The position numbers were made by a program, and so were the translations under genes. Below are positions 4,260 to 60,017 of a stretch of 64,000 bases of DNA, in pieces. The stretch lies in assembly GCA_012646185.1 (NCBI GenBank), contig GCA_012646185.1_4706.1. The stretch is one strand, 5' to 3'. This DNA comes from a phage. The stretch's first letter is position 1, and each line of letters opens with the position of its first letter. The notes under the pieces are model-generated. The model had not been told where the DNA came from, ran no database searches, and saw nothing but the letters and a program-made list of their open reading frames with translations.

Positions 4260-4290
4260 AGTTAGGTAATATAGACCTCAACTTTTTTCC
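4260..4290 (-). promoter_or_regulatory. early-type promoter candidate (CTATATTACC motif)
   Basis: Minus strand reads AAAAAAGTTGAGGTCTATATTACCTAA; same motif at three other sites, all upstream of minus-strand genes. Confidence 0.5.
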
Positions 4291-5078: not shown

Positions 5079-5182
5079 CTTTTAAATTCCTACTTAACAA
5101 TAAAGTTCATATACGGCGTATGTATCCGTAGAATAATGAGTTCCGGTAAGATCTTACATCAAAATGACGGCATAAAAAGTAC

Positions 5183-5207
5183 CTCCTTACCCACATGGGT
5201 AAGGAGG
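5183..5207. terminator. hairpin, candidate terminator
   Basis: cctccttaccc acat gggtaaggagg; U-rich on the minus strand after it. Confidence 0.4.
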
Positions 5208-5359
5208 TTCGTCCATCACGACGAAAGGACGTTATGTGACGCGGTGTCCATAACGGCCCTGGTAGCAGGCATCAAAGATAACAAAAAGGATGTAAGTTGA
5301 GCTAAACCACCTAAATACGGTAACGATTACTTCCGTACACAATATAACGCAACATCTTT

Positions 5360-9480: not shown

Positions 9481-9500
9481 TTCTTGACGTACGTCAAGAA
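9481..9500. promoter_or_regulatory. perfect 20-bp palindrome TTCTTGACGTACGTCAAGAA, candidate operator
   Basis: Read directly; a related half-site TACGTCAAGAAGG occurs at 6218-6230, also upstream of a minus-strand gene. Confidence 0.4.
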
Positions 9501-14101: not shown

Positions 14102-16060
14102 CTACGCTGAGACCGCCTGCATGGATACGTACATCACAGGCTGCTTGCACTTTCATGCAAGAGGAGACTATATCAAACCGGCAGCGCAACCTGCTACGGT
14201 AACCTACACTTCGAAGACGCTCGTCCTCTACAGGGTGGTAAATCCCTTAGTCGTTGAACCTGCGTTGTTTCACATTCTTGTTTGTAAGAATGTCGTATTA
14301 CTACGCAACAACCAGGCTGCTGATTGCCCATTGTTTCGCACCTTAGCACCGCTTACGCGGCTTTTCTTTCAGCCTAAGCCTCTTACGGAGGTAGTGCATC
14401 TCAACTGTTGTTTCTGCCTTTCGGCACCTCATGGGTCGTTGAGCTTTAGGGGTTCCCAGCATTTCGTAGGTTTTTCAAGCACTCCCTTTCGGGAATACCG
14501 GACTCATTATTAGCTTATTTATTCAAGTATCTGAAATCCCACTTATCTTTACGTCGTTTATCGCACTTGATGTCAGGATGATTAACACGATGCCTAATAG
14601 TTGTTGCCGATAGCTGGCTGAGATTCTCAGCAGATCGTGCGCCAAGAACAACGAGTTTTGTGTCGTCTGGACGCGTAACTTCTACTGCCCGATAATGCTT
14701 ACGTAACACATCACGCCAATATTCACGACGTTCTGGTTCAGCATACTCAAGCATGTAACCGTTAACATCTACTAAACCGTAGCTTTCGTTTAATCGAGAG
14801 GTAGCGGCTGGTTTACTAATACCGATTGCTTTAGCCGCATCGACCACGGTTTTATACGGGGTCTCATTACCGTCTCTATCTACAACCACAATGAAATCTG
14901 GACGTGAATCGAGTAGCTGCTGTCTGCGTTCGACGGCTTGTTGATGAAGCACCATGTTAACGTGTTCGAACCCGTAACCTTCTGGACCGTGCCACCCTGG
15001 ATTGTTATTCGCTCGATAAAGTACCGTCGCAGATTTCACTCCAGTCTGACGTGACGCCTCGTTTGCACTATGAACAACCGTGGTAGAGCCGTCAGGGTGA
15101 TATATCCGTATCTGGTTCATTATACCGGAACCAATGAAGTTACCATCAGCTGATTTAATATCCGGCCATGGTTGAGGATCATCTTTGAATTTAACCACCC
15201 AGCGGTTATTAAACAGTTTGACTTTTCGAACATGTTTGCCCATTGTCGTATCCGTAACACCTGCGACTACTGATGCCTGTGTGATACTCAGGTACTCAGT
15301 AACGGTATCGTTCCATGTATCCCAAAGCAGAACCGGTTTATTGTCGTCGCGTAAACCGTATTCGATGGCGTGTAGAACGTTACGACTTCTGGTCGCCCAT
15401 TCAAGATTATCGAGAGAGTAATTCCATTTGTCGGCATCGAGATGATTAACGTCCAACTTATCGACATTAGCCGGATATTCCCGCCACGCCAACATCAAGC
15501 AGCGATGCAGAACCTTAGTTCTCGTTACATCCCGACAATCATGACGTAGACTAATGAATACGTAATTATCCTTTTTCGGATACGATCTACATTCCTGACC
15601 GTCTTTGCGGCGAATAACTCGTCCTTTCTCATTTATCAGATAACGGGTGTGTCCAGGAATGACACGATAACCAGGGTACTTAGCGATTTCGTAAGCAGGC
15701 TCGAACCGATAGGATAAATTATCAACATCCCAGTTAGATTCGTCACCATCAACAAACATCGCTTTGACGTACTTCTGTGTTTCAATATCAACCAGGATGT
15801 TTTTGTGTGCGATACAAATCAATGCTGGGATATTGAATTCACGACCGGCTAAGATAACCATGTCGCCATTTCTCGGTATCACGACGTGGGTATCACGATA
15901 CCGTAAATTTCCATAGCCGTCTATTTCAATCCAGCTTAGAAACGGAATGGATATAAACTCTTTTTCAGATACTCGCCATTTAAACATCTTAATACCTATT
16001 TAATACTAAACATCATATTAATAGGTTTAAAAGTTAAAAATGACAGAAAATGGCTAAATT
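14102..16060 (-). mobile_element. group I self-splicing intron carrying an HNH homing endonuclease gene
   Basis: Canonical P, Q, R, S core elements in correct order on the minus strand: P ~14366-14381 (GGCUGAAA), Q ~14312-14326 (AAUCAGCAGCC), R ~14244-14259 (GUUCAACGACUAAGGG), S ~14163-14176 (UUGAUAUAGUC); P4 and P7 pairings are complementary. 5' splice site not resolved. Confidence 0.7.
14515..15987 (-). CDS. HNH homing endonuclease (intron-encoded)
   Basis: 490-aa ORF with HNH-type motif DVNHLDADKWNYSLDNLEWATRSRNVLHA, a NUMOD4-like N-terminal segment and three helix-turn-helix-like repeats in the C-terminal half. Confidence 0.8.
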   Translation of the reverse strand: MFKWRVSEKEFISIPFLSWIEIDGYGNLRYRDTHVVIPRNGDMVILAGREFNIPALICIAHKNILVDIETQKYVKAMFVDGDESNWDVDNLSYRFEPAYEIAKYPGYRVIPGHTRYLINEKGRVIRRKDGQECRSYPKKDNYVFISLRHDCRDVTRTKVLHRCLMLAWREYPANVDKLDVNHLDADKWNYSLDNLEWATRSRNVLHAIEYGLRDDNKPVLLWDTWNDTVTEYLSITQASVVAGVTDTTMGKHVRKVKLFNNRWVVKFKDDPQPWPDIKSADGNFIGSGIMNQIRIYHPDGSTTVVHSANEASRQTGVKSATVLYRANNNPGWHGPEGYGFEHVNMVLHQQAVERRQQLLDSRPDFIVVVDRDGNETPYKTVVDAAKAIGISKPAATSRLNESYGLVDVNGYMLEYAEPERREYWRDVLRKHYRAVEVTRPDDTKLVVLGARSAENLSQLSATTIRHRVNHPDIKCDKRRKDKWDFRYLNK

Positions 16061-26634: not shown

Positions 26635-26650
26635 TATTCACTGCATAAAC

Positions 26651-26682
26651 CCCTCTCCCTTCCCTTACGGGTTGGGAGAGGG
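26651..26682. terminator. bidirectional terminator hairpin, family 2 (UUAC loop)
   Basis: ccctctcccttccc ttac gggttgggagaggg, 14-bp stem with two central T-T mismatches; between convergent genes. Confidence 0.55.
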
Positions 26683-26688
26683 ATTATG

Positions 26689-39512: not shown

Positions 39513-39544
39513 CCCTCCTCCTTCCCTGTTGGGTTGGAGGAGGG
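39513..39544. terminator. bidirectional terminator hairpin, family 2 variant
   Basis: ccctcctcc ttccctgttgggtt ggaggaggg; between convergent genes. Confidence 0.55.
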
Positions 39545-43662: not shown

Positions 43663-43694
43663 CATCCTCCCTTCCCTTACGGGTTGGGAGGATG
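43663..43694. terminator. bidirectional terminator hairpin, family 2 (UUAC loop)
   Basis: catcctcccttccc ttac gggttgggaggatg; inner 20 nt identical to the hairpin at 26651-26682. Confidence 0.55.
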
Positions 43695-50699: not shown

Positions 50700-50735
50700 C
50701 CTCCTTCCCTAGCCGTCAAGGCCGGGGAAGGAGGA
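50700..50735. terminator. bidirectional terminator hairpin, family 1 (loop inverted relative to 2558-2594)
   Basis: cctccttccctagcc gtcaa ggccggggaaggagg; inner 21 nt is the exact reverse complement of the inner part of the 2558 hairpin while flanks keep the same orientation. Confidence 0.55.
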
Positions 50736-54486: not shown

Positions 54487-54569
54487 TTAAAAAGTTCCTC
54501 TGTTTTTCACGTTAATTAAACAACGTATTGATTTCTATTTGACGCAATACGAACATTGTACGTATGCAT

Positions 54570-54610
54570 CACTAAGGTAATATAGTCGTGAAAGGATTTG
54601 TGTTACAGAA
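54570..54610 (-). promoter_or_regulatory. early-type promoter candidate (CTATATTACC motif)
   Basis: Minus strand reads AATCCTTTCACGACTATATTACCTTAG. Confidence 0.5.
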
Positions 54611-54901
54611 AGGGTTTTGTTGTGTTTTAAGAAGGGATGGATTTAGAAGAGGTGTTTCATGGAAGGTAAACGAGGATAGGTATTTTGATTTAAGTAAGTA
54701 AGATGTTATCTGTATTCGTTAAAAGTGTATTGTTTATCTTAGGTTATGTCTTATTGTTTAATCGTTTAATATTTTTATCTAAGTAGGTTTAACTCTATCT
54801 TGTTTGTATATTTAAATTAAATCAATAAGCTTATCTTCAAAACAATGGATAACATGTGTTTACTACCTTAACGGTAACACATGTCATCTGTGCATTACAC
54901 T

Positions 54902-55110
54902 CCGTTATCACTTCGTTACATGCTTATAAGTTGGATAACTCAAAAAAACATTTGTGATACTCTTCTTCACGTTGTTCATCAGAGTATCTCGTCTATACTC
55001 ATTGCATTCGTATACGACATAACCGTTATACGCTAACGCTACGCTTATAGCTTGATAACTCTAAGGATAAAAACATAAACTCGCTTCGCTCGTTTAGTTT
55101 TTCTTTTTCT
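54902..55110. repeat. imperfect ~45-bp direct repeat pair plus a 12-bp inverted repeat in an AT-rich non-coding region
   Basis: ccgttat...gcttataRSttgGataactc at 54902-54940 and 55023-55066; gataactctaag at 55055-55066 and its reverse complement cttagagttatc at 55099-55110. Confidence 0.5.
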
Positions 55111-55287
55111 TAGAGTTATCCTGTTGCTCGTCTCTAAAGGACTTCGCTCCTCCCCCGTCCCCCGAAGGGGCCGGAGTCGTGGAAATTTTACTTTCCAAAT
55201 ACATTTACAACATCTGTAAACTTTTACTCCAGGTACTTAATCTTATCATTAGAAATTATAAAGAGAAGAATAAACACAAACATAAAC

Positions 55288-55319
55288 CTTCCTCCAACCC
55301 AACAGGGAAGGAGGAAGGG
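55288..55319. terminator. terminator hairpin, family 2 variant (inverted copy of the 39513 element)
   Basis: ccttcctcc aacccaacagggaa ggaggaagg; loop is the reverse complement of the 39522-39535 loop, stems differ by compensatory changes. Confidence 0.5.
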
Positions 55320-55334
55320 AGAGCTTGATTTTAA

Positions 55335-56912: not shown

Positions 56913-57107
56913 TAAGCACATAGAGCAATAGTATGGGTTTTGTACAGCTCGGCTATTGCTCTTCTACAATTTGGTTGTAACAATCTGCGTGGTTGCACGC
57001 TTATCTTTCTCATTGAGCGCTTCGTATGAAGCGTGGTGTTGAAAGGGTTGTGGATCTCCTCAAGCGGCCAGGGACCCAGACCAACCTGAATAAACACGAA
57101 CACCTGT

Positions 57108-57146
57108 TAAGCCCCTCCTCATCCGTTATTGGGTGAGGAGGGGTCT
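57108..57146. terminator. hairpin, candidate bidirectional terminator
   Basis: cccctcctca ... gtgaggagggg between convergent genes; a second hairpin agagcaatag...ctattgctct lies at 56916-56960. Confidence 0.45.
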
Positions 57147-57206
57147 TATACGTCTTTATGCGTTCCGTTCGTTCTGGAGCGTTTTAGGACGGTTTACGGC
57201 AGGGTT

Positions 57207-57842
57207 TTATTCAACACTGAAACCGTTCAAACGAATAGCTTCATAACGCTTACGTTCACGTCGTTTACGCGCCTGCCAGCCGTAAATGAACTTCTCGTCT
57301 TTCTCACGACGTTCAGCTAATTCGATGTAATAGGTGCTCTGCATGTCCAGCATCGCGTCGATGAGATAATCCTTACCGGTTGCACCACGCTTAGAGATGT
57401 AAGCATCAAGAGCTGCCAGTGATTTGGGGCCCATTGCACCATCAGCATCAATATCTTTCCAGTAAGTTTGACGGTTATTCATGACGTTCAGATAACGCTG
57501 GAGGTTCTTAACCGCAACCGTTTTACCTGCATTGATACCCAGGTCAAAGAGACGGTCAGCTAAAAACACAGAACGTTTCATGACTTCGTCAAGTTTCATC
57601 TTATCCCAGAAGTGGGTCTTGTAGATAAAGAACGCCATTTCCGTGGTAAGGTTACGCATGTTACCGTCCCAGCCGAATTTCGTTTTCAGCGTGGTTTTGT
57701 ATTGATTGGCAAGCGCTTGCGTCACGCCGTGGTTCGTGATTCCGCCCGAGTCATCTGGATCGTCGACATAACCTGCCTCGATGCTGGTCTTGTCGCGAAT
57801 GATGAATTCGCAGGTGAAATCTTTTTCAGTAATCTTAGCCAT
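57207..57842 (-). CDS. endolysin, GH108-type muramidase with C-terminal peptidoglycan-binding domain
   Basis: ATG with GAGGAG RBS. N-terminal EAGYVDDPDDSGGITNHGVTQ matches the GH108 signature; C-terminal half resembles a PG_binding_3-type domain. Confidence 0.65.
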   Translation of the reverse strand: MAKITEKDFTCEFIIRDKTSIEAGYVDDPDDSGGITNHGVTQALANQYKTTLKTKFGWDGNMRNLTTEMAFFIYKTHFWDKMKLDEVMKRSVFLADRLFDLGINAGKTVAVKNLQRYLNVMNNRQTYWKDIDADGAMGPKSLAALDAYISKRGATGKDYLIDAMLDMQSTYYIELAERREKDEKFIYGWQARKRRERKRYEAIRLNGFSVE

Positions 57843-57968
57843 TAGAACTCCTCGTTGGAATAACGATTTAGAGGAACAGGAAGGGTCTAGAACGCGATAA
57901 ACGATTTAATCCAAGCAAACCCCAGACTAAACTTTTCGAAGCGTTAGAACGCGTTCTAGAGTGCAATA

Positions 57969-60017
57969 TCAAATACCCTTGGTTCCTTTCACGTGATGTG
58001 CGATTTCTTCAACCATTGCACGCAGAGCACGAAGCTGTTGGTCGTGTTCGTACCAACCACCTAACAGAACCCCGCTATACACCATGGTGTCAAGACTTAA
58101 CAGTCCTTTATCTGATACGTTGATCATTTCAGGGAACTGTTCTTGAACACGCTGTGCGATAACACCGATCTTCTCGACATCAGGATCGTAGTTGTGACGG
58201 AAACGGGCAAGCCCGCTGCGCGCCATTTCACGTAAACGTTCACTGAGAGATTCCGGATGATCTTTCAGATAACGGATGTCGTGTTTACTACGCTCATCCG
58301 AGCGAATGTAAGCGTTAGGAACATCGATATTGCTGTTGAAGTACAGCGCACTACCACCGCCTGCAGAGTTCCCCCAATAGAAGCGTGTGATCTCACCGCC
58401 GCCATTTTCCGTGATGATAACATGTTTACCTAAACGCGTACCACCATTACCATCAACGAAGACCAGTTTGTTTCCGCTGTAAGAACCCCAGAACAAGCGT
58501 GTATCGATGATGTGCGTCGCAGCGAGACGGGCGTTACGTGGTGTAGAATACACGGTGTTCACATCTTGCTGTGCATGCGCATCGGAAGCGATACCGTAGT
58601 TCTGTACGTTACCCAATCCTACCTGCGCTTTTGTAACAGCATGTGGGTTGTCTCGACGGTTAGCGTGAGCGTTAACCAGATCACCCGCTAATTTCTGAAT
58701 TGCCCAGTTGGTAGACTGTGGCGTCATGTAACGGTTCGTTGCAGAACCACCTTGCGCTTCAGCTTGGTTAGCGGTTGGATAGTTCTCAACACTTCCTAAC
58801 CCTACTTGTGCTTTAGACACTTGGTGTGGGTTATTCTTGTCAGCGATGTGTGCATTAAGCGGAACTAACGCAAAGGTCTCAATGGACGCTTTGGTTGTGT
58901 TCGGTGCCATTAATCGGTTAGCTGCAACACCGGCACGCGCTTCTTCTTCAGACGCCATTGGGTAGTCTTGCACATTCCCTAACCCAACCTGTGCTTTGGT
59001 CACCCTGTGTGGGTTGTTGTAATCGGCTTTATGCGCATTAAGTGGAATCAATGCGAACTGTTCGATCGCGGCAACGGTACGTAGCGGTGTCATGAAACGG
59101 TTGTTCGCTGTTCCGGCTTTCGCCTCATCATCCGAAGCGGTCGGGAAGTTATCAACGTTCCCAAGGTTAACCTGTGCTTTGGTGACGCTATGCGGGTTAT
59201 CCCGACGGTTAGCATGCGCGTCGACTAGATCGCCCGCCAGTTTAGCAATCGCCCATCCAACCGTTTGTGCGGTCATGTATCGGTCAGGTGCAGTACCGGC
59301 TTCTGCCTCCGCCTTGTTGGCGGTAGGATAGTTCTGTACGTTACCTAGTCCGACTTGGGCTTTTGTTACTTCGTGCGGGTTATCGGTACGGTTAGCATGC
59401 GCGTAATGCAGATCGGTCAGATCTTTATCCGCTGCTTGCATGTCTTTGCGTAGCTGATCGATTGCCGCCCAGAGACGGTTATCGGATGCGGCGTCACCGA
59501 TAAGTATTGCGGCTTTCAGTGAATAGATCGCTAAGCAAAGATGTTCGGTACCGTAGATAGCACTAACGTGGTGGATGTGTGGTTCAGGCGGATAGAGTTC
59601 CGGTTTGTTCTTGATGTCATCCCAGTTGATCGGACGATCGTCAAGTTTGAGTTCTTCGATAGCCTGATATAACGCGTCAATAAGACTTACGTAAACACCA
59701 CCGATGATACGATAGTCGTTAACTAATGTACCCTCGATATCATCGTTGATAATGGCGATGGCTGCACAGATTTCTTTACCCGCGTAAAGCGTTGCATCCT
59801 GATACAAGAAGATGGGTTTATAATCCACGCCTCGTACCAGTGTCTTACCGGTAAGCTTTTCAGTGATGACCAGACTTTCGGTGAAGAACGGTCCGCCATC
59901 GAGGGCGTAACATTTATTCTCGGTTCGTGGAACGGTATGCTCTTCACCAACGATGTGGTTGCTGGCGAGTGTACCGGTCCAGTCCTCGGGGTACTTCAGG
60001 GTAATTGGTGTCGACAT
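57969..60017 (-). CDS. tail fibre protein with tandem repeats and C-terminal intramolecular chaperone domain
   Basis: Five ~60-aa repeats each carrying HxxxxxNPHxVTKAQVGLGNVxNYP; C-terminal SDERSKHD...GGWYEHDQQLRAL resembles the autoproteolytic chaperone domain of phage fibres and endosialidases. Confidence 0.75.
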   Translation of the reverse strand: MSTPITLKYPEDWTGTLASNHIVGEEHTVPRTENKCYALDGGPFFTESLVITEKLTGKTLVRGVDYKPIFLYQDATLYAGKEICAAIAIINDDIEGTLVNDYRIIGGVYVSLIDALYQAIEELKLDDRPINWDDIKNKPELYPPEPHIHHVSAIYGTEHLCLAIYSLKAAILIGDAASDNRLWAAIDQLRKDMQAADKDLTDLHYAHANRTDNPHEVTKAQVGLGNVQNYPTANKAEAEAGTAPDRYMTAQTVGWAIAKLAGDLVDAHANRRDNPHSVTKAQVNLGNVDNFPTASDDEAKAGTANNRFMTPLRTVAAIEQFALIPLNAHKADYNNPHRVTKAQVGLGNVQDYPMASEEEARAGVAANRLMAPNTTKASIETFALVPLNAHIADKNNPHQVSKAQVGLGSVENYPTANQAEAQGGSATNRYMTPQSTNWAIQKLAGDLVNAHANRRDNPHAVTKAQVGLGNVQNYGIASDAHAQQDVNTVYSTPRNARLAATHIIDTRLFWGSYSGNKLVFVDGNGGTRLGKHVIITENGGGEITRFYWGNSAGGGSALYFNSNIDVPNAYIRSDERSKHDIRYLKDHPESLSERLREMARSGLARFRHNYDPDVEKIGVIAQRVQEQFPEMINVSDKGLLSLDTMVYSGVLLGGWYEHDQQLRALRAMVEEIAHHVKGTKGI

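Follow-up and report, generated by a model that had tools for sequence, protein, structure and literature searches.

The closest described systems to the element reported here are the intercistronic RNase III sites of phage T7 (R1.1 and others), the sib/tI region of phage lambda, the REP hairpins between malE and malF of Escherichia coli, and the hairpin in the leader of T4 gene e (lysozyme). In lambda sib, a nested architecture makes the read-through RNA a substrate of RNase III. Intercistronic stem-loops of the malE-malF type are barriers to 3' exonucleases and provide segmental mRNA stability. The hairpin of T4 gene e masks the ribosome-binding site and also contains the starts of late promoters; it is the classical case of lysozyme timing by RNA structure. 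Nucleus-forming jumbo phages part transcription from translation, and little is known of the processing, stabilisation and timing of their mRNAs. We describe an RNA hairpin in Goslar, a nucleus-forming jumbo phage (Chimalliviridae) with E. coli as host, and in its relatives. As an RNA motif the hairpin is new and restricted to this lineage, but its kind, the intercistronic mRNA stem-loop, is familiar.

The window, by which we mean the whole 64-kb stretch of DNA that was analysed, comes from a close relative of Escherichia phage vB_EcoM_Goslar, with 94.6% identity to MK327938 over 1.3 kb at the hairpin locus. Upstream of the hairpin is a fibre-like gene of 682 aa on the minus strand (57969..60017, stop codon at 57969-57971), identified as an open reading frame and, from the Goslar annotation, as a homolog of gp25. 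The C-terminus of its product is a Peptidase_S74 chaperone domain (Pfam PF13884), and Goslar gp25 has been found in virions (bioRxiv 10.64898/2026.04.21.720040). Downstream, on the same strand, is the endolysin gene, a homolog of Goslar gp24 (57207..57842, ATG at 57842-57840) that encodes Glyco_hydro_108 (GH108) and PG_binding_3 domains. The labels of tail fibre and endolysin given to these genes by an earlier, sequence-only reading of the window hold in view of these domains. An endolysin 100% identical to that of the window is also recorded on a 236-kb contig of an E. coli assembly. More generally, endolysins at least 90% identical to it occur in dozens of public assemblies that bear the label of E. 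coli, Salmonella enterica, Shigella sonnei or Enterobacter hormaechei. A number of them are on contigs of ~235-245 kb, so that complete Goslar-like genomes appear to be hidden in isolate assemblies.

The two genes belong to a co-oriented run, gp28-gp27-gp26-gp25-gp24 in Goslar, where the spacing from gp28 to gp25 is 4-13 nt. The 126-nt spacer between gp25 and gp24 is the sole large gap in this run before the terminator that follows the endolysin. Canonical Goslar terminators are found after gp29 and after gp24; in the window, the terminator hairpin 3' of the endolysin lies between convergent genes (57099..57156, no strand assigned) and is annotated as a terminator in Goslar. The spacer has no TATG, which is the start motif of phiKZ late promoters (PMC4666361), and no early-type CTATATTAC motif, of which the window has four occurrences, all elsewhere. 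A promoter within the spacer was rejected on these grounds. The likeness of CGTTTATCG to 'TTTATG' motifs carries no information, as GTTTATC is over-represented genome-wide (109 occurrences versus ~29 expected); CGTTTATCG is also not conserved in L039 or L040. Because the spacer lacks a promoter motif, the endolysin is most simply, and probably, co-transcribed with the upstream genes. We thus infer that the hairpin lies in a late polycistronic message with the order gp28-gp27-gp26-gp25-hairpin-gp24.

The sequence-only reading had singled out this spacer for a repeated word and a palindrome. Both are where it had placed them, with TCTAGAACGCG at 57886-57896 and a perfect 14-bp palindrome, TAGAACGCGTTCTA, at 57945-57958. 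It had also put the palindrome directly upstream of the endolysin, which is incorrect. Fibre-like gene and endolysin are both encoded by the minus strand; the palindrome adjoins the fibre stop codon, and it is the copy at 57886-57896 that is nearer to the endolysin ATG (43 nt upstream). Exact TAGAACGCG occurs three times in the 64-kb window, always in this spacer, and the 11-mer is confined to this locus in the whole Goslar genome. The shorter TAGAAC/GTTCTA occurs four times within 120 bp. A repeat search returned a perfect inverted repeat of 11 nt (57886-57896 / 57950-57960), its arms separated by 53 nt and centred 64 bp apart. A first-order Markov model predicts ~1.75 perfect inverted-repeat seeds per 64 kb with a length of 11 nt or more and within 90 nt; the window has seven such loci, most of them intergenic and several corresponding to terminator hairpins. 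The inverted repeat alone is therefore not beyond chance at the scale of the window, and its reality rests on comparative evidence. Goslar, L007, L022 and L042 have an interrupted palindrome (TTGTA) and yet retain the long-range stem. The conserved feature is the 11-bp long-range inverted repeat closing an RNA hairpin, rather than the palindrome.

In the folding model, the TAGAACGCG words are the two arms of a conserved stem-loop of ~75 bases in the mRNA-sense (minus) strand, to which all the following coordinates refer. An 8-nt linker (57961..57968) separates the fibre stop codon from the 5' arm of the basal stem, UCUAGAACGCG (57950..57960), which overlaps the palindrome. Next come the 5' side of an internal loop, UUCU (57946..57949; UUGU in Goslar, which breaks the palindrome), and the 5' strand of a middle 4-bp helix, AACG (57942..57945), invariant and paired in 13/13 variants. 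These are followed by a 9-nt asymmetric bulge with few changes among relatives, CUUCGAAAA (57933..57941), and by the 5' strand of the upper stem, GUUUAGUCUGGG (57921..57932), which includes several G·U pairs. The apical loop is GUUUG (57916..57920), replaced by CAAAC in L040. The descending side comprises the 3' strand of the upper stem, CUUGGAUUAAAU (57904..57915), the 3' strand of the middle helix, CGUU (57900..57903), the 3' side of the internal loop, UAU (57897..57899; UAA in L039 and another sequence in L040), and the 3' arm of the basal stem, CGCGUUCUAGA (57886..57896), which is TCTAGAACGCG on the plus strand. Together, CGUU and UAU read CGUUUAUCG, a weak look-alike of the T-run and TATG that follow canonical terminators. 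The predicted layout is a basal stem of 11-13 bp, a 4x3 internal loop and a 4-bp helix, above which come a 9-nt bulge, an upper stem of 12 bp and a loop of 5 nt. The total duplex (11-13 + 4 + 12 bp in 13/13 variants) is in the size range of T7-type RNase III sites (at least ~20 bp of duplex, mostly continuous and commonly with an internal loop). A small open reading frame across the hairpin was discarded, as its TTG start is not conserved in Goslar.

The fold is specific to one strand. The sense strand of 57886-57960 folds at -29.6 kcal/mol, with z ~ -4 and none of 200 shuffles as good, whereas the antisense strand reaches only -18.4 kcal/mol (z -1.0 to -1.7). G·U pairs in the stems account for the much poorer antisense fold, an asymmetry that points to a sense-strand RNA, not to duplex DNA. 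The raw minimum free energy of -29.6 kcal/mol is only at about the 4th percentile of 90-nt windows: the signal of the hairpin sits in the z-score, the strand asymmetry and the conservation, and the raw energy carries none.

We gathered variants from IMG/VR, from metagenome contigs and by look-ups of endolysin homologs. This resulted in 13 distinct versions of the element, from Goslar-like genomes in assemblies of E. coli, Salmonella, Shigella and Enterobacter and in metagenomes. The comparison with related phages, which the sequence-only reading had proposed as a check, bears out the hairpin: the architecture is the same in 13/13 variants, with sense-strand z-scores of -3.3 to -7.3, and the antisense strand is weaker in all nine variants folded on that strand (z -1.0 to -4.3). 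Across the 13 variants, 95.8% of the stem cells are paired, against at most 50% when the partners are slid, in an alignment that was fitted to the structure and hence leans towards the model. One-sided changes in the stems all run through wobble pairs; e.g., the basal pair 16-76 (alignment A4) is GC in eight variants, GU in three and AU in two. There is one clean two-sided compensatory pair only, since two other apparently compensatory pairs are not independent: both stem from a single inversion of the tip in L040.

The stems also vary in ways that preserve pairing. In seven variants (L024, L025, L036, L038, L039, L040 and L041), the two arms of the inverted repeat have diverged through changes compatible with G·U pairing. 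The basal stem is longer by 2 bp in L024, L025, L036, L038, L039, L040, L041 and L046; the two extra outer pairs occur where this stem has a terminal U·G wobble (in some cases with G·U at 16-76 as well), and one of them arises by a C-to-G transversion. In the upper stem, one pair is unpaired in 7/13 variants. In L040 (419-505), the hairpin tip (upper stem and loop) is inverted relative to all other variants (GTTTG to CAAAC), with 22/31 identities to the reverse complement versus 16/31 to the sense sequence. The bulge differs as well, and the element still folds (z -5.0). The L040 tip represents a small inversion, mediated by the stem itself.

To quantify constraint, we counted variable sites among seven genomes and took the fourfold-degenerate sites of both flanking genes as the neutral reference, of which 211/422 (50%) vary. 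The hairpin varies at 10/75 sites (Fisher p ~1e-9 relative to the neutral sites) and the 43-nt leader that extends down to the ATG at 8/43 (p ~8e-5). The 8-nt linker between the stop codon and the hairpin is not different from neutral sites (6/8 vary). Within the hairpin, unpaired positions are as conserved as paired ones (2/21 vary), which argues that the element is functional beyond its mere shape. On this comparative evidence, the hairpin is a selected, strand-specific, non-coding RNA element under purifying selection.

All genomes with an endolysin at least 90% identical to that of the window carry the element. This holds irrespective of the gene upstream: most genomes have the 682-aa S74 fibre there, whereas L041 has a 490-aa S74 protein and L040 a different gene. 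The hairpin starts 6-8 nt past the upstream stop codon after genes of the S74 fibre type (8 nt in the window) and 18 nt past it in L040. The upstream gene is thus a cassette prone to swapping (L033 2485-2500, L041 210-1682, L040 1-405, L026), in line with exchange of a host-range module at this site. The hairpin is absent from a sister clade with 61-71% endolysin identity, in which the endolysin starts 11-20 nt after another gene; in this clade the fibre gene is missing and a gp26-like gene of 864 aa abuts the endolysin. L026 carries a 95%-identical fibre gene with a different downstream gene and no hairpin. As it is missing from L026 and from the 61-71% clade, the element is not indispensable to either the fibre or the endolysin gene.

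Searches for related elements revealed no repeat family or paralogues: a covariance model matches nothing but this locus, both in the window and across the complete Goslar genome. Signs of a dispersed element (REP- or MITE-like) are also absent, the hairpin being in single copy and having no flanking direct repeat. No homologs were found in E. coli genomes or, beyond Goslar, in the phage collection. A similar hairpin before the GH108 endolysins of distant jumbo phages was considered and rejected, because these genes abut their neighbours and have no spacer. Rfam gave nothing relevant for 57780-58030 up to E = 10, and no match at the gathering threshold in the window except for a group I intron elsewhere (14144-14530, minus strand; RF00028, 56.3 bits). 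This intron is near RNA-polymerase subunit genes and an HNH-type open reading frame, and corresponds to the Intron_gpI features annotated in Goslar.

In four variants, a gene of 369 aa, HNH / endonuclease VII-like, lies on the opposite strand between the hairpin and the working endolysin, and the hairpin is intact. Its presence is polymorphic among Goslar-like genomes; it is found in L008 (7207-8316, minus strand), L036 (1380-2489, minus strand), L037, L039 and L040. It matches PHROG endonuclease families (E 1e-35), has a canonical terminator of its own, and looks like a free-standing homing endonuclease. The cassette moves the functional endolysin ~1.3 kb away from the hairpin. Upstream of it, L036, L037, L039 and L040 have a 34-codon duplicate of the 5' end of the endolysin, and in L008 both this remnant and the Shine-Dalgarno are deleted. 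In three of the four cassette variants, the hairpin and leader precede only a 34-codon endolysin remnant. The persistence of the hairpin apart from the endolysin argues for a role tied to the upstream transcript, not to the start of the endolysin. The hairpin was rejected as a target of the homing endonuclease, since it is intact in genomes with and without this gene.

Between the hairpin and the endolysin ATG, the leader (57843..57885, minus strand) is conserved, pyrimidine-rich and unstructured (folding z +0.2 to +1.2). On the same strand, it includes the Shine-Dalgarno GAGGAG (57848-57853), 32 nt 3' of the hairpin, a second copy of TAAATCGTT (57862-57870) and a further copy of GTTCTA (57843-57848). 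The ribosome-binding site of the endolysin is not sequestered: in five variants, the leader folds no better than shuffles. For this reason, we discarded a small hairpin before the ATG that masked the Shine-Dalgarno in one minimum free energy fold. We also discarded TAAATCGTT as a shared regulatory word, its 13 matches in the genome being mostly within genes or terminator tails.

We tentatively favour the view that the hairpin is an intercistronic mRNA processing or stability element, and regard a leaky terminator as its close rival. A processing or stability element would act in cis on the fate of the mRNA. Its interrupted duplex of ~27 bp would be a target of the host RNase III type as well as a barrier to 3'-to-5' exonucleases, and would set or protect the 3' end of the abundant message of the structural genes. 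This message would be uncoupled from the endolysin cistron, and synthesis of the endolysin would differ from that of the fibre protein, being probably the lower of the two. Precedents for this mode of action are the T7 RNase III sites, lambda sib and stabiliser hairpins within operons. The strand-specific fold, with the same architecture in 13 variants and few variable sites, is in line with such a role. So are the tight packing from gp28 to gp25, which leaves the 126-nt spacer as the sole large gap, the lack of a promoter motif, and the retention of the hairpin in the four variants where the endonuclease separates it from the endolysin. Two observations fit less well: a plain exonuclease barrier or RNase III target needs no conservation of unpaired bases, of which 2/21 vary, and the element is missing in L026 and in the clade with 61-71% endolysin identity.

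The evaluation of the terminator depends on what terminators look like in this phage. The canonical ones have perfect GC-rich stems of 9-13 bp with loops of 4-7 nt, followed by a T-run and TATG(CCGT). This pattern fits the 18 annotated Goslar terminators and the intergenic hairpins of the window, and it is often bidirectional. In the window, terminator hairpins are found at 2532-2606, 5181-5208, 26648-26685, 39513-39544, 43663-43694, 50700-50734, 55287-55318 and 57099-57156. Their stems share purine/pyrimidine-rich CCTCCTTCCC...GGGAAGGAGG and, on the transcribed strand, are usually followed by a T-run and TATG, often TTTATGCCGT. Although TATG is the start motif of phiKZ late promoters, it also stands after hairpins that separate convergent genes here, and hence seems to belong to the terminator module or to one that combines terminator and restart.

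The sequence-only reading had suggested a terminator-like structure for the fibre gene, which comes close: there is a conserved, strand-specific hairpin 8 nt past the fibre stop codon, though it does not resemble the terminators of the phage itself. If the element were a leaky terminator (attenuator) acting on the phage RNA polymerase, its upper hairpin and CGUUUAUCG would stop some polymerases after the fibre gene and leave less endolysin mRNA, which we consider possible, if on the unlikely side. The hairpin followed by UUUAU mimics the canonical succession of hairpin, T-run and TATG(CCGT), its position is directly after a stop codon, and a canonical terminator already lies within the same operon, after gp29. 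The chimallivirus 201phi2-1, moreover, has terminators whose hairpins are elongated and composite (PMC11512511). However, whereas canonical stems are uniform, perfect and GC-rich, the inner stem here is rich in AU and G·U, with a 9-nt bulge and a variable mismatch (the pair that is open in 7/13 variants). The U-run has only three U and is not conserved (UUUAA in L039, another sequence in L040): the inner hairpin is followed by only UUUAUC, and the full hairpin by CCCUUCCUG, so that CCCUUCC and no U-tract comes after the basal stem. The basal stem, which is the best-conserved part, is 3' of the U-run and can play no part in termination at that point. Finally, an efficient stop would leave the endolysin without a recognisable promoter.

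The conservation of the unpaired bases, which weighs against a plain processing site, would be best explained, together with that of the leader, if the hairpin bound a specific phage or host protein, e.g., a translational regulator of lysis timing or a factor that acts on mRNAs on their way out of the phage nucleus. Such a protein would recognise the shape together with the sequence of loop or bulge. We regard such a binding site as unlikely. Unpaired positions are as constrained as paired ones, the 43-nt leader is conserved though unstructured, and the element is single-copy and lineage-specific. Chimalliviruses do encode RNA-binding proteins, such as ChmC, which binds RNA near start codons, with some intergenic peaks, and has no sequence motif (bioRxiv 10.1101/2023.09.22.559000). 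For the hairpin itself there is no candidate protein or motif, and ChmC, lacking a motif, does not supply one. L040 keeps the element despite an inverted tip and an altered bulge, which argues against strict recognition of the loop sequence. A bolder version, to which we give little credence, is that hairpin and leader are a dedicated cis-signal for an RNA-binding factor encoded by chimalliviruses instead of a generic nuclease target. Its role might be the sorting of late mRNA or its export out of the phage nucleus, or a delay of endolysin translation until late. If true, it would explain why loops, bulge and leader are conserved like the stems.

It is similarly improbable that the hairpin is a functionless junction left by the exchange of fibre-gene cassettes and kept alike by frequent recombination. 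The boundary is active in recombination, with an upstream gene that varies (682-aa fibre, 490-aa S74 protein in L041, a different gene in L040), a putative homing endonuclease nearby and no hairpin in sister clades. But diversity falls only within the hairpin and leader, while the adjacent 8 nt and the synonymous sites vary highly. Substitutions are biased towards those that preserve pairing (the series GC to GU to AU, and gains of outer pairs), and the diverged copy of L040 still folds (z -5.0).

The operator for lysis timing put forward by the sequence-only reading, here taken as control of endolysin transcription by a dimeric protein on the palindrome and inverted repeat, has in its favour the perfect 14-bp palindrome, the 11-bp inverted repeat and the four TAGAAC/GTTCTA words within 120 bp, but is very improbable, given that the palindrome is broken in Goslar, L007, L022 and L042, that the half-sites diverge by changes that keep G·U pairing in RNA and would be A·C mismatches on the other strand, that the fold is strongly strand-asymmetric, that the spacer has no phage promoter motif to regulate, that the ribosome-binding region is open, that the element persists where the endolysin has been moved ~1.3 kb away, and that its motif is nowhere else in the genome. 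A replication origin was rejected because GC skew merely tracks gene orientation.

Other intergenic features of the window were recorded along the way. Between the homologs of gp21 and gp22, 848 bp (54487-55334) have no open reading frame of at least 60 aa. This region holds a canonical terminator, an early-promoter-like motif and two inverted repeats, one at 54848-54888 and another, imperfect and of 20 nt, at 55054-55073 / 55101-55120. It has no Rfam match at the gathering threshold, and may hold one or more non-coding RNAs or a regulatory hub. The motif CTATATTACYT is found upstream of minus-strand genes at 4274, 28963, 42082 and 54585 (all on the minus strand), and the Goslar genome contains six copies. 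Other chimalliviruses have AT-rich early motifs, and by analogy this one probably serves Goslar-like phages as their early (virion RNA polymerase) promoter. ACCTTCTTGACGTA is found upstream of two minus-strand genes (6228 and 9500, minus strand), once within a perfect 14-bp palindrome, TTCTTGACGTACGTCAAGAA (9481-9500), and is a candidate regulatory motif of another class.

The interest of the hairpin lies in its place, at the sole point of the late structural operon where the gene of the lysis enzyme attaches. RNA-seq of Goslar infection has been reported (bioRxiv 10.1101/2023.09.20.558163), as has dCas13d knockdown. Goslar and E. coli are a tractable pair, and the hairpin offers a handle on the question of whether chimallivirus messages are shaped by RNase III or exonucleases of the host, and on endolysin dosage. 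Should it turn out to be no more than a processing or stability hairpin, it would belong to ordinary phage biology.

How, then, does the element compare with known systems? With the canonical Goslar-like terminators it shares a position just past a stop codon and a UUUAU-like run after the inner hairpin; unlike them, it is 75 nt long, imperfect, rich in AU and G·U, strand-specific and provided with an extra basal stem. As in T4 gene e, an RNA structure lies upstream of the gene of a lysis enzyme on read-through transcripts, but here the ribosome-binding region is open, and the hairpin ends 32 nt before the Shine-Dalgarno and contains no TATG. The malE-malF REP hairpins resemble it as stable hairpins after a highly expressed cistron and before one whose expression is expected to be lower; they differ in being a dispersed family, whereas this hairpin is single-copy and has conserved unpaired bases. 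Like lambda sib/tI, it stands 3' of a gene and nests a smaller hairpin with a short U-run in a longer stem available only to read-through RNA. A test for a sib-type arrangement found both the nesting and the position, with an inner hairpin that is a poor terminator by the standard of this phage. Unlike in lambda, the read-through RNA carries a gene that needs to be expressed, the endolysin, and we know of no antitermination system in Goslar-like phages. The differences from the T7 sites are the lack of sequence similarity, the number of sites (about ten in T7, a single element in the Goslar-like genome), and the place of transcription, as T7 RNA polymerase works in the cytoplasm and the chimallivirus polymerase in the phage nucleus. 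The similarities concern the architecture: as in T7, a single long imperfect hairpin lies between cistrons in a phage of E. coli, two helical segments flank an internal loop over about two or more turns of duplex, and the upstream message would end with a 3' hairpin.
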